Shown: positions 17,419-33,799 of the stretch, in pieces
How the letters are laid out: each line of letters starts with the position of its first letter
Position numbering within the stretch: the stretch's first letter is position 1
Origin: Chloroflexota bacterium
Lineage (GTDB): Bacteria > Chloroflexota > UBA11872 > VXOZ01
NCBI GenBank assembly: GCA_964291655.2
Contig: OZ219802.1
Span: forward strand, 2,304,001-2,368,000
DNA length: 64,000 nt
Direction of reading: 5' to 3'
Translations under genes and position numbers: made by a program
The notes under the pieces: model-generated
Told to the model about the DNA's origin: nothing
The model's input: only the letters and a program-made list of their open reading frames with translations
The model's database searches: none

Positions 17419-18789
17419 CTAAGCGTTCTCCTTCTTCCAGTCCTCGATGGCCTGCTCGAGCGCCGCGAAGGAGTTATCGACCGCCTCTTCCGACGTCAGA
17501 TTGTCTTCCTCGCGGAAGTGGGGCCGCAGGTGCGTATTGAGGGCACCGGTGAAGCTCCGGTACGCTGGGTGAGGCCAGAACGGCGTGGCATAGCCCGCGC
17601 TGCGAGCGAATGACAACTGGTTGGCCGGGTGCGGGTTGTCTTCCGGCGGGCCGAAGGCATGTTGCGAAGGGATGTGCACGGGAATGGCGTGACCCCGCTG
17701 CCCCATCCACTCTTGATGGGAGGATTTGACAAACCAGACCACAAGCGTCTCCGCATCCGGATTCGTGCTGCTGTCTAGGACAAAGTGCTCTTCCTGACCC
17801 ATGAACGCGCCGCGGGTGCGTCCGCCGCCAATTTCGAGGTAGGGCGGCTCGATGGAATCGAATCCGAATTGGGCTTGCTCGCGTGTGGGCGTGATGCCCC
17901 ACGTGCCGAAGATCACCTGGCTGAGCTGCTGGTTGTTGAAGGCGTTGATAGCAAAGCCGCTCAAATCGATGTCTTCGTTGTTCGGGCCTGGGGCCGCGCC
18001 GCGCCTGGTCCACGCATCCTTGATCATGCGCACCATGTGCAGTGCGATTTCGCGGTCGGCGGCCAACTCGCCGTCTTCGTCGAGCATGCCCGCATAGACG
18101 AACGGCAAATACTGGGGGATATAGGAACTGGTGCTAATGCCCCAAGCGGTCGTCTTCTCCTGCCCCTGGTTGAGGTGTGCTGTCAGGTCTTCGGCATCGC
18201 TTAGCACTTGCTCCCACGTGGTGTCGTCAGTCGGTGGATTGAGGCCGGCGGCAGCGAATTGATCTTTGTTGTAGAAGATGCTCGTGGTGTTCAAGCCGTA
18301 CGGCACGCCGAGCAGTTTGCCCTGCCAGGTATTGCCCTTGATCACCGGTTCGACGATATCGTCGATATTTACGCCGTGTGCCGCCAGCATCGGGCGGTGG
18401 TCCCGGACGATGTCGGCCACCTGATGCGGCGCCACGCCCCACCAGCACACGTCCGGCGGTGAACCGGCTGCCAAGAGCGCCGGCAGTTCTCCCGGCGGAT
18501 AGCCCAGCTTCCAGGCAATGTCGACTTCGGGATGTTCCGTATCGAAGAGCTCCAACGTGGCCGCCGTCTTGGCGATCGTGTCCTCACGCTGGCTGATGAG
18601 CAACGCGACGACGGGTGCGTGCTCCATCATCTGCGGCTGCTCTGCCTCTTCCTGCGGGGCATCTGCCGCCTGCTCCATGGGCTCACCCGTCATCTGCACC
18701 TGGCCGCAGGCAGCCAAGACGAGTCCGGCGGAGCCGATAGTCGACGCGCCGAGTAAACTGCGCCGTGAAAGTCTTTGGGCATCTCTCAT
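17419..18789 (-). CDS. Extracellular solute-binding lipoprotein (ABC family 1), Tat signal
   Basis: SRRSLL..LAACG, IFYNKDQF..AG, TTW. ATG 18789 follows AGGAG. Confidence 0.9.
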   Translation of the reverse strand: MRDAQRLSRRSLLGASTIGSAGLVLAACGQVQMTGEPMEQAADAPQEEAEQPQMMEHAPVVALLISQREDTIAKTAATLELFDTEHPEVDIAWKLGYPPGELPALLAAGSPPDVCWWGVAPHQVADIVRDHRPMLAAHGVNIDDIVEPVIKGNTWQGKLLGVPYGLNTTSIFYNKDQFAAAGLNPPTDDTTWEQVLSDAEDLTAHLNQGQEKTTAWGISTSSYIPQYLPFVYAGMLDEDGELAADREIALHMVRMIKDAWTRRGAAPGPNNEDIDLSGFAINAFNNQQLSQVIFGTWGITPTREQAQFGFDSIEPPYLEIGGGRTRGAFMGQEEHFVLDSSTNPDAETLVVWFVKSSHQEWMGQRGHAIPVHIPSQHAFGPPEDNPHPANQLSFARSAGYATPFWPHPAYRSFTGALNTHLRPHFREEDNLTSEEAVDNSFAALEQAIEDWKKENA

Positions 18790-18868
18790 CGTTGCTCTCC
18801 TTTGTACCACTGCTCACTCTGCGGGAACGGCTTTGGGTGTTTCCCTGCCACTACCCGTTGTGGCAGGA

Positions 18869-21984: not shown

Positions 21985-22365
21985 GTGGCGAGAGAAGTCA
22001 ATTACAGAGATCCCAAGGTAGAAGAGCACCTGCGCATCAGCCGCCAATTCCTGCGCCAAGCGGAAGAAGAATTCGCCACAGGCGACCGGCTCCAAGCCTC
22101 AGAGAAGGCCTGGGGCGCGGCTGCGCACGCGGTGAAAGCCGTGGCTCAGCACCGTGGCTGGCAGCACGACGGGCATCGCTTTCTCTTCGAGGCAATCGAC
22201 AAGATCTATTGCGAGACGAGGGACTCGGAATATCTTGCTCTTTTTGGATTGGCCAATTCGTTGCACACGAACTTCTATGAGAATTGGCAAACGGACAATC
22301 AAGTCCAAGACGGGATCAAGCGTGTAGAGGTGCTGTTGGAGAAGCTGGAGCCACTGGTAACGTGA
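21985..22365 (+). CDS. PaREP1 family protein, copy 2
   Basis: Same motifs, 381 nt from GTG. Confidence 0.85.
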   Translation: MAREVNYRDPKVEEHLRISRQFLRQAEEEFATGDRLQASEKAWGAAAHAVKAVAQHRGWQHDGHRFLFEAIDKIYCETRDSEYLALFGLANSLHTNFYENWQTDNQVQDGIKRVEVLLEKLEPLVT

Positions 22366-22447
22366 AACCATCCAAGGGCGTGCTGTAGTGCCACGTGTAG
22401 CTAGTCACGACGAATAGAAGAGCAGCAGCCAGAATACGGAGAACATG

Positions 22448-22828
22448 GTGGCGAGAGAAGTCAATTACAGAGATTGCAAGGTAGAAGAACACCTGCGCAT
22501 CAGCCGCCAATTCCTGTGCCAAGCTGAGGGAGAGTTTGCGCAAGGCGACAGGCTTCAGGCCTCGGAGAAGGCCTGGGGCGCCGCCGCACATGCGGTGAAA
22601 GCCGTGGCTCAGCACCGTGGCTGGCAGCACGACGGACACCGGTATCTCTTTGATGCGGTCGATAGAATATACCGCGAGACGGAAGACGCTGAGCTTCGTG
22701 ACCTATTCAGAATTGCCAATTCGCTGCATACGAACTTCTACGAGAATTGGCAATCGGAAGACTTAGTCCAGGACGGGATCAAGCGCGTAGAGGTACTGCT
22801 GAAAAGGCTGGAGCCGCTGGTAGCTTGA
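22448..22828 (+). CDS. PaREP1 family protein, copy 3
   Basis: Same motifs, 381 nt from GTG (or ATG 22445). Confidence 0.85.
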   Translation: MAREVNYRDCKVEEHLRISRQFLCQAEGEFAQGDRLQASEKAWGAAAHAVKAVAQHRGWQHDGHRYLFDAVDRIYRETEDAELRDLFRIANSLHTNFYENWQSEDLVQDGIKRVEVLLKRLEPLVA

Positions 22829-22913
22829 ACTTGCGCAAACTATTCGTGGGGCAGATTGACTTCCCGCCCTCACGGCTCGCCGGCTGTCGACGAGCCCTCA
22901 TCGAGTATGCGCA

Positions 22914-24284
22914 CTACATTAGCACCCCCGGCAAGGCGTTGGCGACGGCGCGGGTGGCGCGTTCGGTAGCGGCGGCGACGTCGAGTTCATCGGTGTAGAG
23001 CGGCTCGATGAGGTTTCTGGTGAGCAGCGTGCCTACCTCCGTCCAGGGCAACGTCGTCGTACCCAGCCCATTGCGCAGCGCCTCCAAGACCACCGGCACG
23101 CGATCTTCGACCATCGCGAGCTCCGGCCGTTCGCCGGAGGGGTTTTCAACGTGTTTAAGGGCGGGAATCCAAGCCGGCACCATCGAGCGCAACGCCACGT
23201 AGGGCGCGAGCGCCTTGATGGCCTCGTAGGCCAACTCGGTTTGCACCGACTTGCCGTGAATGCCCATGACGTCCATCACGTAGAGCGAGCTGTTAGCGTT
23301 GCCGGCAAAGGACGGCGAGTGCTGCACTTTCCAGCCGCCGCCGATATTTTCGCCGGAATAGACCATGGCGTGATGTAATGCTGCCCGCTTGCGCGGCGCC
23401 AAGCGCGTCATGTCAAAGAAGGACATGTCCGCGCCCGTCGGCATAATGCGGTGCGTGTAGGCTAGATCCCGCCACCACTGGAGCGCCGCACGGGTCTTAT
23501 CGGAATTGAGGCTCAGCCGACCCTCCTCCATGTTCAGCACGCCCCCGCCGGACTGGGCCATGAGGTGCGCCCACAGTGCCGAGTGAAGGCCCTCGCCAAT
23601 GGCCCACCAGTCGTCCTTGTTGCGCGCACGCGCCGCGGTCATGAAATCTTGTCCCAGCGCTACGAGGTCATTCCAGGTCCATTTCTCGGGAGGTGGCGGC
23701 AGGTCGGTATCGTCAAACCGGTCCGGCCTCCAGGCCATCACGCCGGCGCCCAACACCGTTGGCACCGCTTGGATGCGCCCCCCGAATGTCGTGGCGTCCA
23801 CGGCTGGGGGCACAAACTCGTTAAGAAAGCCCGGGTCGCGCTGTATATAATCGTTGAGCGGTGCAAAGAACGGGCTGGCAATGCCGGGCAGTGTGAAGAT
23901 GCCGCCGGTGAGCATGGCAACGTCCGCCGGACGTCCGGCAGCGGCCTCGGCGTCTATGCCGCGGCGAAAATACGTCCACGTCGGCGGGCTGCCACTGGCC
24001 GTGACGCCGCCGTCTTCGCGTACCTTAACTATCTGCAAAGAGATGCGAAATCGCTCACTAGGGCCGGCAGGATCGATTTCGCCGCCGTTCCAGGCCTGGA
24101 TGGCACGGATGAGGTTGGTGGCAGAGATGAGGGTAATATTCGGCGCGACCACGTGTACCGTCGGCACGTTGGCCTCGCCGCCAGGTCGGATGGAATCCGG
24201 CAGACTGTTGCCACATGCCGCCAGCAGCGGTACTGCCGGCAGCGATATTACCGCCTTCAGAAACCTCCGACGTGATACGTTCAT
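22914..24284 (-). CDS. Extracellular solute-binding lipoprotein, Tat signal
   Basis: SRRRFLK..LLAACG, APLNDYI, PP..WTWNDL. Confidence 0.8.
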   Translation of the reverse strand: MNVSRRRFLKAVISLPAVPLLAACGNSLPDSIRPGGEANVPTVHVVAPNITLISATNLIRAIQAWNGGEIDPAGPSERFRISLQIVKVREDGGVTASGSPPTWTYFRRGIDAEAAAGRPADVAMLTGGIFTLPGIASPFFAPLNDYIQRDPGFLNEFVPPAVDATTFGGRIQAVPTVLGAGVMAWRPDRFDDTDLPPPPEKWTWNDLVALGQDFMTAARARNKDDWWAIGEGLHSALWAHLMAQSGGGVLNMEEGRLSLNSDKTRAALQWWRDLAYTHRIMPTGADMSFFDMTRLAPRKRAALHHAMVYSGENIGGGWKVQHSPSFAGNANSSLYVMDVMGIHGKSVQTELAYEAIKALAPYVALRSMVPAWIPALKHVENPSGERPELAMVEDRVPVVLEALRNGLGTTTLPWTEVGTLLTRNLIEPLYTDELDVAAATERATRAVANALPGVLM

Positions 24285-24369
24285 CGCGTTTCAACCAGCA
24301 CTATGTTGGCACTCCCCACTCATCTCTATTCTAAACCTTACTAAGGCACTAAGAAACACGCCTCTTCCA

Positions 24370-24570
24370 ACCCGTTGCTCCCGGCGAACGGAGCAGGATG
24401 CGTGCGCCATCGTACAGTAGATCACCGGGTCTGTGCCGTTGAAGATGGCGGTGATGTGCGGCAGGTAACCCATAGCTGAAAAAATGCCCGCGCGTTGGAT
24501 CACGAGCGACAGTTTGACCGCCGGATTCCTCAAGGTGGCGTCCAGGTTGTAGCCCGGGGAGCTTGCATCC
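24370..24570 (-). pseudogene. Probable gene remnant of unknown family
   Basis: Coding-like GC3-rich stretch PGYNLDATLRNP..GYLPHITAIFNGTDPVIY with no good start, abutting a REP cluster. Confidence 0.3.
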
Positions 24571-24574
24571 TTCT

Positions 24575-24895
24575 CACCCTAAAGAGACCCTTGCCGCCAA
24601 CCGATTAGACCCACTCTCCCTGGGGAGACCCTTGCATAGCCCTTACCGAGGCGAGAAATTCACCTCCCGGCGCAAGAGGGTAAGGGCCTGCCCCGTACTC
24701 GATACGGGGGTGAGGGGACTCCCCGCAATCCGGGCTAATTTCACTGATCGTACACACAAACATATAGGTATTTGAGCCTTAAAGGACAGGATAGGCAGGA
24801 ATCCCCTCACCCCAGCCCACTCCCCAAGGCGAGGGGGTAGTTCTAGCGCCGCTGGCCGAGGTTCGGCAAAGTTCTCCTGGGAGAGAGGGGAATTT
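24575..24895. repeat. Cluster of CCCTCACCCC..CTCTCC-type palindromes and IS-end-like motifs
   Basis: Same family at 32566-32601, 36310-36340, 39180-39266, 39357-39381, 39720-39747 and 58889-58906. Confidence 0.7.
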
Positions 24896-24958
24896 GTGCC
24901 GAGAACCAGATTAAGCAATTGTTCACTTGGTGAAACACTGCGTGCTTTAACGGAACGG

Positions 24959-25783
24959 CTACATTTGCACGACCAAGCCATCGTACGCGGGCTCGATGCC
25001 GTGCGGCGCAAAGAACTCCACACACTCCAGATAGGGTGGCGTGCGGTTGTGGGAGAAGTGCGTGGCGAAACGGCGTGCCCCGGGACGCAGCAAGCCCTCA
25101 TCTTCCAGCCTTTGATGGTGTTCGGCGCACTGCTGCATAGAGAGATGGTGCGTGCCCGGCGGTCCGATGCCCATAGTCGATTCGATGACTGCGCAGTCGA
25201 AACGGAATGCTTGGAGTTGCCGCCAAGTTTCATCGGGGAAAGGGCCGGTGTCAGATGCGTAGAGTAGCGTGCGGTCACCCTCTTCGATGGCAAAGAACAC
25301 CGGTATGAGTTCCTCTGCGTGTGCCGCCGGAAAAGCCGTGACCCGGTAGCGCCCGGTCTGCCAGGAATCACCGGGTTGGATGGTGTTGAGCCGCAGGTGA
25401 AACTCCTCTTCGGAGAGATTGCGCGCTGAGGCCTCAGCTTTCGTCGCTTCCGTCGTGGGAAGAGTGCCAAAGACTTCCATCTGCGCGGGTGTCGTAGCAC
25501 AGAAGTTGCTCCGACGCATGTAGAGATTGGGCAGGTGAAAGTGGTCGCCGTGGGCATGGGTGATGAGCAAGGTGGCAACGCGGCCGAAGTTCGCGCCGGT
25601 AGCGTGCATACCGGCCAAGAAATCGGGGCCGATATCTATCAGGAGGTCGTCATTCACCATAAGCGCCGAGCGCCGCCGCAGGTTACGTCCGCCGCGCGCC
25701 CGCGCGGCAGTACAATGCGCGCATTCGCAAAAAAGCGCCGGATAGCCTTCAGCAGCTCCTGTACCGAGGAAGAGTATGCGCAT
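24959..25783 (-). CDS. MBL-fold hydrolase (PhnP-like)
   Basis: LGTGAAEG.P..FCECAHC, THAHGDH, YASDTG, THFSH. Confidence 0.9.
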   Translation of the reverse strand: MRILFLGTGAAEGYPALFCECAHCTAARARGGRNLRRRSALMVNDDLLIDIGPDFLAGMHATGANFGRVATLLITHAHGDHFHLPNLYMRRSNFCATTPAQMEVFGTLPTTEATKAEASARNLSEEEFHLRLNTIQPGDSWQTGRYRVTAFPAAHAEELIPVFFAIEEGDRTLLYASDTGPFPDETWRQLQAFRFDCAVIESTMGIGPPGTHHLSMQQCAEHHQRLEDEGLLRPGARRFATHFSHNRTPPYLECVEFFAPHGIEPAYDGLVVQM

Positions 25784-25792
25784 TTGGTTGCC

Positions 25793-26596
25793 TCACCGGT
25801 TCATTTCACGGAGAATGTGCGCCAGTTCGGGAATGAGTATCTCGTTCAGCGCCAGACGCACGGCGCCGGACGAGCCGGGACAGCAGACGACGAATTTGTT
25901 GCCGATACGGCCGGCAGTGGCACGGCTGAGAATGGTCGCGGCGCCGATTTCCTCGTAACTCAAGATGCGGAAGAGCTCGCCGAAGCCGGTGAGTTCCTTC
26001 TCCAGCAGCGACTGCACGGTCTCGACCGTGATATCCCGCGTGCCCGGACCTGTGCCGCCGGTGAGCATCACGAAGCGCGCCCGGCTTGCCAGCATGTGGG
26101 TGAGCGCCTGCGTAATCTGCTGGGCATTATTCTTGACCAACCGGTAACCGACAATCTCGTGGCCGGCCTCCTGCAGCATGGATTGGATGATCGCGCCGGA
26201 CTTGTCGTCGAGCTCCGTGCGCGTGTCGCTGACCGTGATTACCGCGCACTCTATGGTGGGAAACTGCTGCGCGCCGGCCTGGCGATGCTCATCGGGGGAC
26301 GACGTTGCAGCGGCCGCGCCGTGTTCGTGGGCGTCATGGGCGTGCTCTTCTGCTTTAGCCCCATGCTGGCGCTCGTCGTGGGCGTGGGCCTCGCCTTCTC
26401 CGGCATGGCCGTGGTCGTCGGCATGGCCACCCTCACCCGTTTGGGCGTGTGCCTCATCTTGCAGGCGTGCCGCTGCTTCCGCCTCATTGTCATCGGCCTC
26501 GCACGGCGGCGGTCGATGCGGCTGCCGGGAGATTATCGAGCGCCCCTGATGATGCTCGTGGTCATGGTCGTGTTCGTGAGTCTGCTCATTGTTCAT
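25793..26596 (-). CDS. moaB: MogA/MoaB molybdopterin adenylyltransferase with His-rich N-terminal extension
   Basis: VITVSD, DKSG, TGGTG..RDITVE, SRATAG, PGS. MogA versus MoaB not resolved. Confidence 0.88.
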   Translation of the reverse strand: MNNEQTHEHDHDHEHHQGRSIISRQPHRPPPCEADDNEAEAAARLQDEAHAQTGEGGHADDHGHAGEGEAHAHDERQHGAKAEEHAHDAHEHGAAAATSSPDEHRQAGAQQFPTIECAVITVSDTRTELDDKSGAIIQSMLQEAGHEIVGYRLVKNNAQQITQALTHMLASRARFVMLTGGTGPGTRDITVETVQSLLEKELTGFGELFRILSYEEIGAATILSRATAGRIGNKFVVCCPGSSGAVRLALNEILIPELAHILREMNR

Positions 26597-26846
26597 GTTG
26601 CTAGACCTCCAATTTCCCCGGTGGTGCCGTGATCACTCTTCGTCGGTGCGCGGGAGTTTGCGCCAATTCATTGAACGTGCAGCCTGCCCAACATTAGTGA
26701 GGGGGCGACTGTCTCAAAGATTGGCCTTCAACCTGTGAATTTGCTTTTCGCCAGCACATACTATTGTACCGCGAATACCGTGCCTTGCAGGAGTGCTTGG
26801 AAGCGTTCCCCGCATGAAGTTCAGAAGCTCGTATGGCAATGCTTGA

Positions 26847-27066
26847 CCGTTCGTGCTGAGCTTGTCGAAGTACGAACGGTCAAGCTCCTCACTGGTTCTG
26901 ATGGTTGTTCTAATGTCTTCAATCGGCGCAGTAATAGTCGTCAAACGTAGTATAGCCAGGTGCCGCAAGAAGCATTCCGCATAGAACCCAGATTCAACCA
27001 AGTCTTCCGCTCAGCCTTCGACAAGCTCAGGCCGAACGGAATTCGACAAGCTCAGGCCGAACGGAA
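26847..27066. repeat. CTTCGACAAGCTCAG-type palindromic repeats including a tandem pair
   Basis: TTCGACAAGCTCAGGCCGAACGGAA twice at about 27017-27066, inverse copy at about 26847-26879, related copy near 29190. Confidence 0.7.
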
Positions 27067-27163
27067 AGAGTGCCAATCTTACGGACGGACGAGTGTGCGC
27101 ACCGTGCGGGCAAGGAAAACCCACATTGATCCGCCTGCCCGTGCAGCCTCTGCCTGGAAAAGT

Positions 27164-27760
27164 CTACCCCACAAACCCCTGTAGGAAGGGATTGCCGGCA
27201 CGCTCTGCGCCGACGGTTGTGGGGTCGCCGTGGCCGGGGAGTACGCGGGTCGCGTCCGGCAGCGGCAGGATCTTTTCTGCAATGACCTTTAGCAGCAGTT
27301 CACCGTCGCTATCCTCGAAGTCGCTCCTGCCTACCGAGCCGGCAAACAGCGTATCGCCCGCAAATAGGTGGTCCTCCACCAGGAAGCACATCCCGCCTGC
27401 GGAATGGCCGGGCGTGTGCAGTGTCCGGATGGTAAGGCCGCCCAACGCCAATTCCTCGCCGCCCTGCAGCAGCACGTCAGGTTCAATCCCTAGCTGGTCT
27501 TTGAGCAGGGCCGCGTCGGCCTGGTGCAATACGATGGGCGCGCCGGTCTGCTCACGGTAGAATTCATCGCTATCGACGTGGTCGAAGTGGCGATGAGTGT
27601 TGAGAACATAGCGCAGGTTTAGTTGCAGGTCCTGGATGTTCTGTAGCAGATCGTCGCTCTGGATGCCGGGATTGATGATTGCCGCTTCGTTGCTGTGCTC
27701 GTCCCAGAGGAGGTAGACGTTGTTTAGCAGCGGACCCCGGACGAAAGTCTCCACCCTCAT
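27164..27760 (-). CDS. MBL-fold hydrolase (glyoxalase II-like)
   Basis: THRHFDH, HTPGHS, AGDTLF.GS.GR, PGHG. ATGA overlap with tatB. Confidence 0.9.
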   Translation of the reverse strand: MRVETFVRGPLLNNVYLLWDEHSNEAAIINPGIQSDDLLQNIQDLQLNLRYVLNTHRHFDHVDSDEFYREQTGAPIVLHQADAALLKDQLGIEPDVLLQGGEELALGGLTIRTLHTPGHSAGGMCFLVEDHLFAGDTLFAGSVGRSDFEDSDGELLLKVIAEKILPLPDATRVLPGHGDPTTVGAERAGNPFLQGFVG

Positions 27761-29043
27761 TGGGCGGCCTCATTCTTGCCGGAGTCGGCTCTGCCGGGGG
27801 TCTCGGTAGGGGAATCTGCATCGGCATCCACCGACGTTTCAGCAGCCACTGGATCCACCGCGGACGCCTGCTCACTATCGTCGTTCTGGACCGCTAGCTT
27901 GGCCTCATCAACCGCTGCCGCGTCCGGAGCGTCTGTAGCAGCGGGCTCCGGGGAATCCGCATCCTCTGCAGTGGTGCGAAATGCCTGTGCCAAAGTGCTG
28001 AATTCCGATCCTGCAGAGACAGGGTCGACTGCGCTCGCCGCCGCAGCCTGCGGCTCGACGGTCTGCGTAGCGTCTTCGGTAGCAACCACAGCATCCCCGT
28101 TGACCGTGGCGGTGGGTTCTTCTTCCGGCGCCTCTTCAGTGGGCTCCGGCTTGGGCGGTGGCGGTGGTTTGGCAAACACCAACTCGCACCAGGGATCGCC
28201 TGCCGTCAGGTGCGACTCCCACTTCACCTCAGCCGTGCGTTCCTCCAGATATGCCAGGTCATACGCGCCGCACGACCGGCACAGTTCCACGTCATCAGAT
28301 TCAGTAAAGCTAAAGGGACATTGGCGCATGCGCACGCGATAGTCTCTGCCGGTCTCAATAATCTGCAAGCTGCCCTCCGGCAGCGAGTTGCGGTGCATGT
28401 CCGCCCACGTGCGCACCAGCGCCGCAACGTCCTGTTCCTTTTCTGCGTTCCTTTCGGCGGCGCGCGTGCCGAGATCACGGTAGATCGCTGCCTGTTCCAC
28501 CAGCCAGTCTTCGCCAAGCCGCGCCTTAAGGCTGCGCATCAATCCCGCAAAGAGGTCTTGCTGCAGCGGCGAACCGCCGCCGGACTGGCTTCCCTGGGGC
28601 GTCCAGGCAGCGCCGCGTTCGCTCAGGTTGGGGCGTGAGGAGGTCTCGGTGGGAACAGCCGCTGGCGGCGCATTGGCTTCGGCGCCGACCTGGTCCGGTC
28701 GCGTCGCGGCAGCCTCCTTCGCCGTTTCATCGAGATCGCGCTTTATATCGGCACCGGCAGTCTTGACCTCACTCTCAACTTCCTTTACGTCTTTCTCCAC
28801 GTCCTCCGCGGTAGAGCGCACTTCACCTTGAATAGAGGAGATTTCACCACGGATGGCGTCAATGTCTTCCTGCACGTCGCCGAGCTGGTCCTTGAAAGTA
28901 GCGATTGCTTCGCCATAGCTCGAGCGCAGCATGCGGACAACCCCCGAAATTTGACGAATTACCCCCGGCAGGCGGTCCGGTCCCAGGAGGACCAGGCCCA
29001 GCAGGAGGATGATCATAAGTTCCGGCAGGCCGATGTCAAACAT
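27757..29043 (-). CDS. tatB: TatA/B-family translocase subunit fused to a Cys4 V4R/SufR-like domain and an acidic tail
   Basis: MFDIGLPEL..LLGPDRLP N-terminus followed by an amphipathic helix. Internal CPF-x10-C-x2-C-x27-C. Confidence 0.8.
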   Translation of the reverse strand: MFDIGLPELMIILLLGLVLLGPDRLPGVIRQISGVVRMLRSSYGEAIATFKDQLGDVQEDIDAIRGEISSIQGEVRSTAEDVEKDVKEVESEVKTAGADIKRDLDETAKEAAATRPDQVGAEANAPPAAVPTETSSRPNLSERGAAWTPQGSQSGGGSPLQQDLFAGLMRSLKARLGEDWLVEQAAIYRDLGTRAAERNAEKEQDVAALVRTWADMHRNSLPEGSLQIIETGRDYRVRMRQCPFSFTESDDVELCRSCGAYDLAYLEERTAEVKWESHLTAGDPWCELVFAKPPPPPKPEPTEEAPEEEPTATVNGDAVVATEDATQTVEPQAAAASAVDPVSAGSEFSTLAQAFRTTAEDADSPEPAATDAPDAAAVDEAKLAVQNDDSEQASAVDPVAAETSVDADADSPTETPGRADSGKNEAAQ

Positions 29044-29319
29044 ATTTGCTCATTTTCTGCGGCGATTGCTTGTGAATCTGCACAGGGCGCGCACTGCATA
29101 GCGCAGGCCGCGCACCGCTGCTTTGCTTTATTCTATCCCGCACAGCGTGCAGGAGCAAAAGCTGTGCGTAATCCGGCGGTGTGTTCCCTTCGACAGGCTC
29201 AGCACAGGCCTGCCGAAGTGCTCAGGACACGTTTGCTAGCTGCGCCTGGCAGAGGCTGTACGTGCAAACTGTCACACAGTATCATGTGCATTGAGTATAA
29301 AACCAAGGGAGCGTGAACG

Positions 29320-29610
29320 ATGGCAGTGCGACAGAGAATATGGCAACCTGAGTTGTCATGGCGCGTGTTTCGCAAGGAACTGCCCAATGATTGGTGCCTG
29401 CGCATCAACGAGCGGTACACGGTGCCGTTCGCGAACGGGTACGTCCTCCAGATCACACGCGCCGAGCATAACGACGATGGCTGGGAATGCGCGCTCGAAC
29501 GGCGCGGCCGCTTTGCAAAGCACGCCGACTTTCCCCACGGACCGCAGTTGATCATGGAAGAAGCCGCGGTGGACGCGCTGGTGGAGAAGGTGGCCGGCTA
29601 TCCCGGCTAG
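29320..29610 (+). CDS. Hypothetical protein (96 aa)
   Basis: GGGAG RBS, coding-like codon usage. Confidence 0.6.
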   Translation: MAVRQRIWQPELSWRVFRKELPNDWCLRINERYTVPFANGYVLQITRAEHNDDGWECALERRGRFAKHADFPHGPQLIMEEAAVDALVEKVAGYPG

Positions 29611-29790
29611 TAAAGATAAGCTGCAGCGTGGCGCGGGGGGCTTGTCCCCCGCTTGAGAAGGCGTTGCCCGCAACGACACTTGGCAAGGCAATCTATTTCC
29701 CATCCTCATAGAATCGCCGTTTAACTCGAATGTATCCCAACGGTAGTACCTGCTCAGATACGACGTGTGTTGTGCCCAAAGGAGCCGTTC

Positions 29791-30852
29791 GTGCCGACCA
29801 TCACCGCTGACGCCCTGCGCCGCATCGGCCAAGCATTCTTCATCGCACTCGGCTGTCGTCCCGATGATGCGCAGATTGTGGCCGACCACCTGGTGCAATC
29901 GAGCCTCTACGGCCATGACTCCCATGGCATTTTGCGCATGTATGAGTATGCGCGCGCCGTGGACGAAGGGCGCGTCCAACCCCAGGGAACGCCCAAAATC
30001 GTGAGTGAACGCGCCTGCACGGCAGTGATTGACGCCAACGACGGGTTTGGGCAGGTCGGCGCGACTCTTGCCACAAAGTTGGCCATAGAGAAGGCGCGGC
30101 AGTACGGCCTGGCGAGTGTCGCACTGCGCAGAGCGAGCCACATCGGCAGAGCGGGAGCCTACCCCATCATGATTGCCCAGGCCGGCCTCATTGGCGTGGC
30201 CTACGTCAATTACGGTCGTTTAGGCATCCAAGTTGCGCCGTTCGGCGGCATAGACGGCCGTCTGGCGACGAATCCATTGGCTTTTGCCGCGCCGCGCCGT
30301 TCCCAGCCGCCCATCATGGTGGACATGACAACGAGCACGGTCGCCGACGGCAAGATTCGCCTGGCTACCAATCTCGGCAAGCCGCTGCCGGAAGGGTGGA
30401 TCATCGATGGAGAAGGCAATCCGAGCACCGATCCGCAGGACTATTGGGACGAACCGCGGGGCGCAATCTTGCCGCTGGGCGGTCCACTCGGCCACAAAGG
30501 CTATGCGCTGGCCATGATGATGGAACTTTGCGCCGGAGGCCTGAGCGGTCAGGGCATGGCCTCCGGGGACAGACGTTCGTCCGCAAACGCCTTCCTGCTT
30601 ACTGCCTACGACATCGGACACTTCACCGACATGGACTTCTTCTACGACGAGGTGGAAGCCCTGGTGAGCCACGTCACGTCGAGCCGCACCGCTCCCGGCG
30701 TCGCGGAGATTTTGATTCCCGGCGAACCCGAATTCCGCAGCGAGCGCGAGCGGGAACGAACGGGCATCCCCATCGACGACACTACCTGGGAAAGAGTCTG
30801 CGCCTCAGCGCGTGACATCGGCCTCGATCCAACCGCCTGGGAGCTTAAGTGA
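29791..30852 (+). CDS. Ldh_2 family oxidoreductase, copy 1
   Basis: GHDSHG, HIGR, TNPLAFA.P, GHKG, PGEPE. GTG start after AGGAG. Confidence 0.92.
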   Translation: MPTITADALRRIGQAFFIALGCRPDDAQIVADHLVQSSLYGHDSHGILRMYEYARAVDEGRVQPQGTPKIVSERACTAVIDANDGFGQVGATLATKLAIEKARQYGLASVALRRASHIGRAGAYPIMIAQAGLIGVAYVNYGRLGIQVAPFGGIDGRLATNPLAFAAPRRSQPPIMVDMTTSTVADGKIRLATNLGKPLPEGWIIDGEGNPSTDPQDYWDEPRGAILPLGGPLGHKGYALAMMMELCAGGLSGQGMASGDRRSSANAFLLTAYDIGHFTDMDFFYDEVEALVSHVTSSRTAPGVAEILIPGEPEFRSERERERTGIPIDDTTWERVCASARDIGLDPTAWELK

Positions 30853-30870
30853 TGACATTAGGAGCCCTTT

Positions 30871-31953
30871 GTGCCAACCGTTTCTGCTGAGGCTCTGCGC
30901 CGCATTGGATACGACTTTTTCGCCGCCGTGGGTTGCCGTCCCGCTGACGGCCAGACTGTAACCGATCACCTGGTGCAGTCCAACCTCTTCGGCCATGATT
31001 CCCACGGCGTGGTGCACATGGAAAGGTATGGGCGCGCCGTCTGGGAGGAACAACGTGTTGACCCGCGAGCGGTACCGGAAATCGTGCGTGAATATCCCTG
31101 CACCGCGGTGGTGGATGCCAATGGTGGGTTCGGTCAGGTGGGTGCGACCTTCGCCACCAAACTCTTGATACAAAAGGCGCAACAGCACGGCGTGGCCAGT
31201 GTCTCACTGCGCAATACGAGCCACATTGGCAGGTTGAGCGCGTATCCACTCATGGTGGCGCAGGCCGGCATGATCGGCCTGGTCTTCGTCAATGCCGGTC
31301 GGATGGGCTTTCAGGTGGCGCCCTTTGGGGGCATTGACGGTCGCCTGGGCACGAATCCGCTGGCTTTTGCGGCGCCCCGGCGCGCCGAGGCACCGCTTTT
31401 TGTGGACATGAGCACCTCCACGGTCGCCGACGGCAAGATTTACATCGCCGCCAACCAGGGAAAGCCGGTGCCTGAGGGATGGTTTGTCGATGCGGAGGGC
31501 AACCCCAGCACGAACCCGCATGACTATTTCGATGAACCGCGCGGGGCTGTGCTTCCGCTGGGCGGTCCCCTGGGGCACAAGGGCTTTGCCCTCAGCTTGA
31601 TGATGGAGATTTGCGGGGGAGGACTAAGCGGTCAGGGCATGTCCCAAGGCGACATGCGCTTTAGTAGTAACGGCGTTCTCATTACGGCCTACGACATCGC
31701 GCAGTTCACCAATCTGGAGGAATTCTACGCTGAGGTGGAAGCACTGGTCAGCCACGTCAAGTCGAGCCGCACCGCGCCCGGCGTGGATGAGATTCTGGTA
31801 CCCGGCGAACCGGAATTCCGCACGGAGCGCGAACGCGGGCAGACGGGAATCCCCATCGACGACACCACCTGGGAAAAGCTCTGCGCCGCGGCCCGAGAAA
31901 TGGGCTTGGAACCAGACACTTGGGAACTCACCTCGCGTGACGCCGCAGACTGA
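30871..31953 (+). CDS. Ldh_2 family oxidoreductase, copy 2
   Basis: Same motifs. Confidence 0.92.
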   Translation: MPTVSAEALRRIGYDFFAAVGCRPADGQTVTDHLVQSNLFGHDSHGVVHMERYGRAVWEEQRVDPRAVPEIVREYPCTAVVDANGGFGQVGATFATKLLIQKAQQHGVASVSLRNTSHIGRLSAYPLMVAQAGMIGLVFVNAGRMGFQVAPFGGIDGRLGTNPLAFAAPRRAEAPLFVDMSTSTVADGKIYIAANQGKPVPEGWFVDAEGNPSTNPHDYFDEPRGAVLPLGGPLGHKGFALSLMMEICGGGLSGQGMSQGDMRFSSNGVLITAYDIAQFTNLEEFYAEVEALVSHVKSSRTAPGVDEILVPGEPEFRTERERGQTGIPIDDTTWEKLCAAAREMGLEPDTWELTSRDAAD

Positions 31954-32409
31954 ACGCGGCAACACTTCGGACGGCTGCAGCACTCCACGTGTGACAGTCT
32001 CGACACTATGGCAGGATAGATGCAGCGTTCAGCGCTTGTAAATGTCAGGTAGTTCATTGACAGACTTGAGAACAAAAGCAGCTGAACGCAGTACTCTACA
32101 TGAACAGTACATATGTCATTCCGAACGAAGCGCAGCGAAGAGTCGCTCTTAGCGCGGGATCTAGTGTGCTGAAGCCGTTTAGGTGCGTTGAGCAGTGACC
32201 CTAGATTCCGCGAACAGGGTTCGACGCTCCGCTCGGAATGACATGCACCGTCAACTCCTCAGAGTGGAAAGCGGTTTTTGTCAACAATTTACTTAACACA
32301 TACAAGCGCTGCCCTGCGGTGAGTTCCCACCCGGCGATCCCCGCATAAAGGGGCAGGGTAGGGGCGGGCTTCCAGTCCAATGCGTAACTTGGGACAGTGG
32401 CTTTGCGAA

Positions 32410-32601
32410 ACTTCCTCTCCCTGAGGAGACTCTTGAAAAACCCGAGCCGTCAGGCGAGAGGACTCCCTTTCCATGGGGAGACTCTTGAACAACCCGAGCC
32501 GGCTAGCGAGGAAACTCCCTCTCCTTGAGGAGACTATTGAACAACTCGAGCCGTCAGGCGAGGAGACTCCCTCTCCATGGGGAGAGGGCCGGGGTGAGGG
32601 G
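32410..32601. repeat. 52-bp tandem repeat, three units plus a terminal full palindrome
   Basis: Units start at 32410, 32462, 32514 and 32566. Confidence 0.85.
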
Positions 32602-32734
32602 AATCTTCACCGTACCAACCTGAACCGGCGTATTTGACATAAGTACACAGAGCCTGCACTGTAACCCAATACGTGGAGCTTCACGAGCAAGAACCTAACC
32701 TTCAAGACTCACGCGATGCCGAAAGGAGCCGTTT

Positions 32735-33799
32735 GTGCCTACCGTTACCGCCGACGCTTTGCGCAGCATTGGCTACGAATTCTTCACCGCTCTGGGCTGC
32801 CGCCGGGAAGATGCCCGCATAGTTACTGATCACCTCGTGCAGTCCAACCTCTACGGCCATGACTCTCACGGCGTCGTACGCATGGAACAGTATTGGAGCG
32901 CAGTAACGGAACAGCAGGTTGTCGACCCGCAAGCTGTACCGGAGATTGTGCGCGAACATCCCTGCACAGCGGTGGTGGACGCCAACAACGGGTTTGGTCA
33001 GGTGGGCGCAGTCTTTGCCACCAGGATCTTGATAGAGAAGGCACAACAGTACGGCATAGCCAGTGTCTCGCTGCGCAATACGAGCCACATCGGCAGAGTC
33101 GGGGAGTATCCGCACATGGTGGCACAGGCCGGCATGATTGGCCTGATCTTCGTCAACGCCGGGAGACTGGGCTTTCAGGTAGCGCCGTTCGGTGGCATCG
33201 ACGGCCGCCTCGGGACGAATCCGCTGGCCTTTGCGGCGCCACGGCGCGCCGACCCGCCATTCTTTGTGGACTTGACCACCTCCACCGTCGCCGACGGCAA
33301 GATCAAAGTGGCTGCCAACCAGGGGAAGCCGCTGCCTGAGGGCTGGATCGTGGATGCGGCAGGCAACCCCAGCACCGATCCCAGCGACTACTGGGACGAA
33401 CCGCCCGGCGCTGTGCTTCCGTTGGGCGGTCCCCTAGGGCACAAAGGCACTGCGCTGAGCATGATGAATGAGATCTGCGGCGGCGGGCTGAGCGGTCAGG
33501 GCATGTCCGCCGGCGACATGCGCGTGGATAGCAACGGTGTGCACATGACAGCCTATGACATCGCCCAGTTTGTGGAACCTGAGTTCTTCTATGATGAGAT
33601 CGATACGCTCATCAGTCACGTAAAGACGAGCCGCCCGGCAGCCGGTATCGATGAGGTTTTGGTTGCCAGCGAACCGGAATACCGTGCGCAGCGCGAACGC
33701 GAGCAATCGGGAATCCCCATCGACGAAACTACGTGGGGGAAGCTCTGCGCCGCCGCCCGCGACGTGGGCCTGGACCCAAACACCTGGCAACTCATCTAG
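32735..33799 (+). CDS. Ldh_2 family oxidoreductase, copy 3
   Basis: Same motifs. Confidence 0.92.
   Translation: MPTVTADALRSIGYEFFTALGCRREDARIVTDHLVQSNLYGHDSHGVVRMEQYWSAVTEQQVVDPQAVPEIVREHPCTAVVDANNGFGQVGAVFATRILIEKAQQYGIASVSLRNTSHIGRVGEYPHMVAQAGMIGLIFVNAGRLGFQVAPFGGIDGRLGTNPLAFAAPRRADPPFFVDLTTSTVADGKIKVAANQGKPLPEGWIVDAAGNPSTDPSDYWDEPPGAVLPLGGPLGHKGTALSMMNEICGGGLSGQGMSAGDMRVDSNGVHMTAYDIAQFVEPEFFYDEIDTLISHVKTSRPAAGIDEVLVASEPEYRAQREREQSGIPIDETTWGKLCAAARDVGLDPNTWQLI

Follow-up and report, generated by a model that had tools for sequence, protein, structure and literature searches.

A TatB-type protein of a Chloroflexota lineage with a C-terminal cysteine domain related to the SufR sensor

What is a cysteine-bearing globular domain doing on the tail of a subunit of the twin-arginine translocation (Tat) system? 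The question is raised by a gene at positions 27757..29043, on the reverse strand, of a 64,000-nucleotide stretch of DNA from a Chloroflexota bacterium (assembly GCA_964291655.2, contig OZ219802.1, positions 2,304,001 to 2,368,000); this whole stretch is called the window. The open reading frame begins with ATG, ends with a stop codon at 27757-27759, matches the tatB model and encodes a TatB-type protein of 428 amino acids with a C-terminal cysteine domain. Judged from its sequence and homologies, this gene is very probably the sole TatB of its lineage and carries a domain resembling the sensor domain of SufR. We know of no Tat component that carries a cofactor-binding or sensor domain. No description of a fusion between TatB and such a cysteine domain was found in the literature searched, in line with an earlier sequence-only reading of the window, which knew of none; the supplements of a preprint on SufR (10.64898/2025.12.26.696629) and of PMC5847659 may list some. 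On the sequence evidence the protein is a real and previously undescribed variant of TatB, whose function we infer below.

The TatB of the lineage

The TIGR01410 tatB model matched residues 2-73 of the 428-residue protein with an E-value of 5.3e-14, which bears out the canonical TatB N-terminus described in the sequence-only reading. The score was 52.5 bits, and 54.6 bits for the same frame in a whole-genome scan, against a curated cut-off of 56.5. With PF02416 the corresponding scores were 18.7 and 21.6 bits (cut-off 21). Matches to these two models support the first part, residues 1-40 (28924..29043, reverse strand, as for all parts of the gene), comprising a transmembrane helix with Glu8, a Gly-Pro hinge (residues 21-22) and an amphipathic helix, so that all three N-terminal elements of TatB are present in the protein sequence. 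Hydropathy analysis (Kyte-Doolittle) found a single hydrophobic segment, at residues 1 to about 30, and none after it. An acidic helical region follows at residues 41-115 (28699..28923), with weak matches to coiled-coil families. TatB (TIGR01410) is likewise built of a transmembrane helix bearing an acidic residue 8, a Gly-Pro hinge and an amphipathic helix, followed by more acidic helices; as the N-terminal 115 residues have this usual layout, they would be expected to lie next to TatC within the Tat receptor.

Beyond this point the protein departs from the familiar form. The TatB of E. coli has 171 residues and an unstructured tail (PMC9436932; this and the other sources are cited from the accessible parts of their text), whereas here a long linker, a 135-residue cysteine domain and an acidic tail bring the total to 428. 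The linker, rich in Pro and Ala, spans residues 116-157 (28573..28698). It is followed by the globular domain at residues 158-292 (28168..28572), of the SufR-sensor / ATC_hydrolase / V4R kind by hhalign and BLASTP, and by a tail at residues 293-428 (27760..28167), Pro-rich and then acidic, with one short conserved motif at about residues 345-353. Linker and tail differ from the other parts in identity and in the ratio of nonsynonymous to synonymous substitution rates (dN/dS). The only cysteines of the protein all lie inside the globular domain, in a cluster at 28186..28320 formed by Cys242 (28318-28320), Cys255 (28279-28281), Cys258 (28270-28272) and Cys286 (28186-28188). The globular four-cysteine region with a Pro/acidic tail behind it, noted previously from the sequence, was thus confirmed and given these boundaries. 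Among 5751 open frames of at least 150 residues in the genome, the pattern CP-x11-C-x2-C-x20-35-C occurred in three, and the other two look non-coding by eye.

In its genome the gene occurs together with one TatC (274 residues, 211.6 bits) and one TatA (89 residues, 62.4 bits) and is the only other member of the TatA/B family. The tatA, tatB and tatC genes are dispersed across the genome. Of the 98 class genomes, 78 had tatB scores over the curated cut-off, among them every genome of the window's genus except the window's own (16 of 17). In the three families of the class that have the domain (f1, f3 and f4; the six families are labelled f1 to f6), the best tatB match of every genome was the same frame of 350-500 residues that holds the domain.

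Relatives, distribution and constraint of the cysteine domain

Profile-profile comparison placed the domain among known sensor and enzyme families. With hhalign, using partner sets of sequences gathered from Chloroflexota genomes, it aligned over its whole length with members of ATC_hydrolase (94.5%, 94.3% and 89.7% over 124-128 columns). Values against SufR-like proteins were 53% with 11 sequences, 89.6% with 13 and 92.8% with the two closest, and V4R proteins gave 72.7% over 79 columns, in the C-terminal half. Reversed controls gave 0.1-0.3%; as yardsticks among known families, ATC_hydrolase reached 93.6% against V4R and 88.9% against SufR. A profile of the domain (A3), searched against 268 further Chloroflexota genomes that do not belong to f1, f3 or f4, matched nothing but the C-terminal portions of two proteins of about 215 residues, SufR-like and with SufR as their best NCBIfam match. 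In BLASTP the domain of the window and one of this pair were 32% identical over 57 residues (E 6e-8), with Cys242, Cys255 and Cys286 aligned; the cysteines line up in hhalign as well. Language-model neighbours of a stored homologue (ATC_hydrolase, TRAPP and MetOD1, 0.87-0.89) were taken as a lead only.

The cysteines point the same way. SufR is reported to bind [4Fe-4S] through C179, C192, E195 and C220, and its sensor domain to resemble TRAPPC3 and MopR (preprint 10.64898/2025.12.26.696629). The spacing is C-x12-C-x2-C-x27-C here and C-x12-C-x2-E-x24-C in SufR; the two have in common three cysteines of like spacing and, three residues beyond the second of these, a residue able to bind metal, and Cys258 stands at the position of SufR's glutamate ligand. 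That fourth ligand position is Cys in the window's genus or Ser elsewhere, not Glu as in SufR. The protein also lacks the winged-helix DNA-binding and dimerisation domains of SufR, its sensor-like domain being part of a membrane protein; it is therefore not a member of COG2345/TIGR02702, only a relative of their sensor domain. The SufR model TIGR02702 had no match in the window's genome or genus, and the ATC_hydrolase (PF14196) and V4R (PF02830) models had none in the genome at E-values up to 1.

MetOD1, HNOB, V4R and ATC hydrolase are described as alike, with three conserved cysteines, and as one superfamily (PMC5847659), and V4R as homologous to Bet3 (PMC2253512). The present domain has ATC_hydrolase as its best profile-profile match and resembles that family and MetOD1 (PF18546) in the three-cysteine cluster reported for them (PMC5847659); unlike it, they stand alone or serve as outputs of response regulators, with no TatB fusion. 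It shares a superfamily (PMC5847659) with the V4R domains of MopR/PoxR and MsvR, where cysteines bind zinc (MopR) or sense redox state (MsvR, whose conserved C206, C232 and C240 take part in redox control; PMC3729527). The V4R triad differs in being C-x25-C-x7-C, with two positions in common as judged from spacing and the hhalign consensus rather than from a direct alignment with MopR. From these comparisons, the 135-residue domain is homologous to the SufR-like sensor and the ATC_hydrolase/V4R domains, and the SufR/V4R-like cysteine pattern of the sequence-only reading is supported by hhalign, the A3 matches, the BLASTP alignment and the ligand spacing of SufR.

The architecture is widespread in the class. 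A word-indexed search returned 38 relatives at 62-100% identity with the same architecture, 37 of them with PF02416, and the named ones were Chloroflexota metagenome-assembled genomes (MAGs). The A3 profile found the domain as a single copy in 73 of the 98 class genomes, always in a TatB frame of 350-500 residues and in three of the six families (f1 16/16, f3 38/38, f4 18/19; f2 0/1, f5 0/9, f6 0/14), and 24 loci of named MAGs have the same architecture. Eight matches came from a domain-only scan of 1.84 billion representatives, of which three, about 26-33% identical, combine the TatB N-terminus with the domain; another, P0042, was treated as spurious, being a repeat protein by eye. No stand-alone domain was found among those representatives or among proteins of 74-244 residues, and nine short matches considered as such were dropped as fragments or as frame-shifted or chimeric calls (four inspected by eye). 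An origin of the fusion in faulty assembly or gene prediction has virtually no chance of being right. It is a general possibility only, though a few database entries are fragments or chimeras by eye, and it is countered by an uninterrupted frame shared by 73 genomes, of which many are single-contig chromosomes, and by the 24 named-MAG loci. Mis-assembly, which the sequence-only reading had named as a refuting outcome, was excluded on these counts.

Across 16 aligned orthologues (64-93% identity) all four cysteines were invariant. Mean identity was 89% in the transmembrane and amphipathic part, 86% in the helical part, 73% in the linker, 85% in the domain and 42% in the tail; the dN/dS values of these regions (NG86, 16 sequences) were 0.096, 0.074, 0.23, 0.095 and 0.33. 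The domain and the TatB core have equal dN/dS; the globular part is a genuine domain under purifying selection.

The regions flanking the domain vary more. The linker is far longer in other families than in the window's genus, and in these families (L040-L055) a conserved motif, Asp-Pro-x-Asp-Ala-Met-x-x-Ala-Ile-x-x-Thr-Phe, precedes the domain. The conserved motif in the acidic tail of the window's genus (window positions about 28005-28031) has Ser346 and Leu351 invariant and Glu347, Phe348 and Ala352 nearly so. Both motifs could be docking helices. In f5 and f6, the sister families without the cysteine domain, TatB bears a different module: two of the three proteins tested end in UPF0175 (PF03683; 31.0 and 33.0 bits, cut-off 27.9). 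The loci tested were L090 472-1989 (reverse), L092 277-1098 (forward) and L093 443-1225 (reverse), and the TatB frames of f5 have 456-544 residues. TatB tails in the class seem to carry exchangeable small domains.

Possible role of the domain

Substrate proofreading by Tat is described as poorly understood, and the membrane-extrinsic part of E. coli TatB is reported to affect folding quality control (PMC9436932). Our best overall explanation, offered tentatively, is that the domain holds a metal centre and modulates the quality-control role of TatB. Cys242, Cys255, Cys258 and Cys286, which occupy the [4Fe-4S] ligand positions of SufR, probably hold a metal centre in the window's genus; whether this would be iron-sulfur or zinc is close to an even call, with iron-sulfur as our narrow guess. 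The domain would hang on a flexible tether beneath the Tat receptor, and the state of its centre (cluster present, lost or oxidised) would alter the part that TatB's cytoplasmic region plays in substrate handling or quality control. That the domain regulates Tat is in itself doubtful; the idea draws on the report that this region acts in quality control (PMC9436932). The fullest form of the idea, a Tat receptor with a built-in iron-sulfur/redox sensor in which loss or oxidation of [4Fe-4S] changes how TatBC accepts, holds or rejects folded substrates, we consider unlikely.

If it were true, this would be the first case of a protein translocase subunit under the control of its own cofactor, and the cell's only SufR-type sensor in a genus without a SufR-like regulator. 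SufR-like genes (TIGR02702, E up to 0.001) were found in 0 of 17 genomes of that genus, although the window's genome has both sufB and sufD; in f3 (4 of 5 genomes) and f4 (3 of 3) SufR-like genes do occur. The finding extends the group of SufR-sensor, ATC-hydrolase and V4R domains to a membrane transport machine. As natural TatB proteins come in three variants, with four Cys, with three Cys and a Ser, and with no Cys, they offer a direct way to ask if TatB's cytoplasmic region is open to regulation.

A number of observations weigh against a metal-centre domain that modulates TatB. Cys242, Cys255 and Cys286 are retained in 76 of 84 distinct sequences. Position 258 is Cys in 42 of these 76, the window's own type and found at every locus of its genus, and is Ser in the other 34, that is, in all the full sequences outside that genus. 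In five further sequences, from genera g7 and g11 (L046 and L050-L053), Asp, Ala and Thr occupy the three Cys positions. The domain is kept there despite the loss of its ligands, so its core role in these genera needs no metal; the remaining three of the 84 sequences are fragments. Pro243 and Tyr261 are invariant in an alignment of 31 sequences that includes the Cys-less forms. Cysteine conservation, proposed earlier as a check, thus held fully in the 16 close orthologues and only in part further out, position 258 being genus-specific and two genera Cys-less.

Other points on this side concern function and context. The first 50 or so residues of E. coli TatB are reported to suffice for export (PMC9436932), which makes the tail an accessory. 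The zinc of MopR, bound by C155, C181 and C189, is held to be structural (PMC9556785). No Pfam family matched the domain at E-values up to 10, and the PDB sequences gave no useful match for the domain, its profile or the ATC_hydrolase profile. Among the loci examined there is no universal partner gene common to f1, f3 and f4; at all 15 close loci a metallo-beta-lactamase (MBL)-fold hydrolase gene lies directly downstream of TatB, and 14 of the 15 also have a MoaB gene, while neither occurs at any of 9 distant loci. A crude screen of the genome for frames with a twin-arginine signal returned 88, of which 59 belong to one cofactor-free family of SBP_bac_1/8 lipoproteins. Three Oxidored_molyb proteins and a rhodanese are also present. 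The view of Tat as an exporter of cofactor-loaded proteins, which the sequence-only reading had brought in as context, is weakened by this majority.

A serious possibility is that the domain is a constitutive module, with structural zinc or, in some genera, no metal, which enlarges a chaperone-like surface or docks a partner or hydrophobic ligand and senses nothing. The zinc of the three-Cys V4R-type domain of MopR, attributed to structural integrity (PMC9556785), offers a precedent, and the two genera that retain the domain without any Cys are readily accommodated. The presence of UPF0175 in the corresponding position of the f5 and f6 TatB suggests that modules can be swapped on the tail, and genes for AAA+ proteases adjoin in some lineages (a Lon-like one at each of the 20 f4 loci examined, an FtsH-like one in some of f3). 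Set against this module without sensing, the ligand positions match the iron-sulfur site of SufR, and they differ from the C-x25-C-x7-C of V4R, MopR and MsvR, in which one ligand Cys precedes the final one by eight residues, again by spacing and hhalign consensus. The window's genus, moreover, has gained its fourth Cys exactly at the fourth-ligand position of SufR. Were the metal only structural, the meaning would be more modest: TatB tails would be carriers of exchangeable small domains, be it this domain or UPF0175.

Minimal TatAC systems exist in some bacteria, and the TatB-like N-terminus might accordingly be a mere membrane anchor for a sensor or an ATC-hydrolase-like enzyme, with export carried out by TatA and TatC and the domain unrelated to Tat. 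The dispersal of the three tat genes would suit such an arrangement, as would the closest profile match, a family named for a hydrolase of C-S bonds. We nevertheless find it rather improbable, as the N-terminal 115 residues are constrained like the domain (dN/dS 0.07-0.10), the match extends beyond the general TatA/B model to the TatB model, with nearly all genomes of the genus above its curated cut-off, and the best TatB match is a gene of this kind in every examined class genome with TatB matches.

Neighbouring genes and Tat substrates

The MBL-fold hydrolase gene of the window lies at 27164..27760 on the reverse strand (PF00753, E 6.8e-22). Its start overlaps the TatB stop by ATGA, as the sequence-only reading had stated. 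The "His-rich Moco enzyme" given there as following on the same strand proved to be a MoaB-type protein of molybdenum cofactor (Moco) biosynthesis (25793..26596, reverse strand; PF00994, E 3.3e-31), 567 bp beyond the MBL gene. It is His-rich: its first 110 or so residues form an extension in which His, Asp and Glu abound, and the MoCF_biosynth domain begins at residue 118. Both neighbours were dropped as functional clues, being genus-specific. No Rfam family was found in window positions 22000-31000, and a promoter search gave one promoter-like site, inside the start of the open reading frame, with counts not above those of shuffled sequences.

Other lineages have other neighbours. A Lon-like protease gene (Lon_C and AAA lid, about 540 residues) lies directly upstream of TatB on the same strand in 20 of 20 f4 loci examined, those of the Cys-less genera included; examples are L020 3644-5266, L022 3404-5134 and L026 3597-5189. 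In the f3 genera g4 and g5 the TatB gene and an FtsH-like gene converge. Near TatB in the window's genus there is neither a Lon-like nor an FtsH-like gene. On the forward strand of the window (29767-33799) are three tandem Ldh_2 paralogues (malate/L-lactate dehydrogenase 2) of 354-361 residues each, and an Ldh_2 gene is also found downstream of TatB in 6 of 9 distant loci.

We also considered whether presence of the domain is tied to the number of Tat signals and drew nothing from the comparison, as the PF10518 counts are noisy (f1 8-16, f3 0-5, f4 0-4, f5 0-3). The 59 or so SBP_bac_1/8 paralogues are proteins of about 460 residues with a twin-arginine signal followed by a lipobox; examples in the window lie at 17419-18810 and 22914-24284, both on the reverse strand. 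In this organism Tat therefore looks like a major way out for binding proteins.

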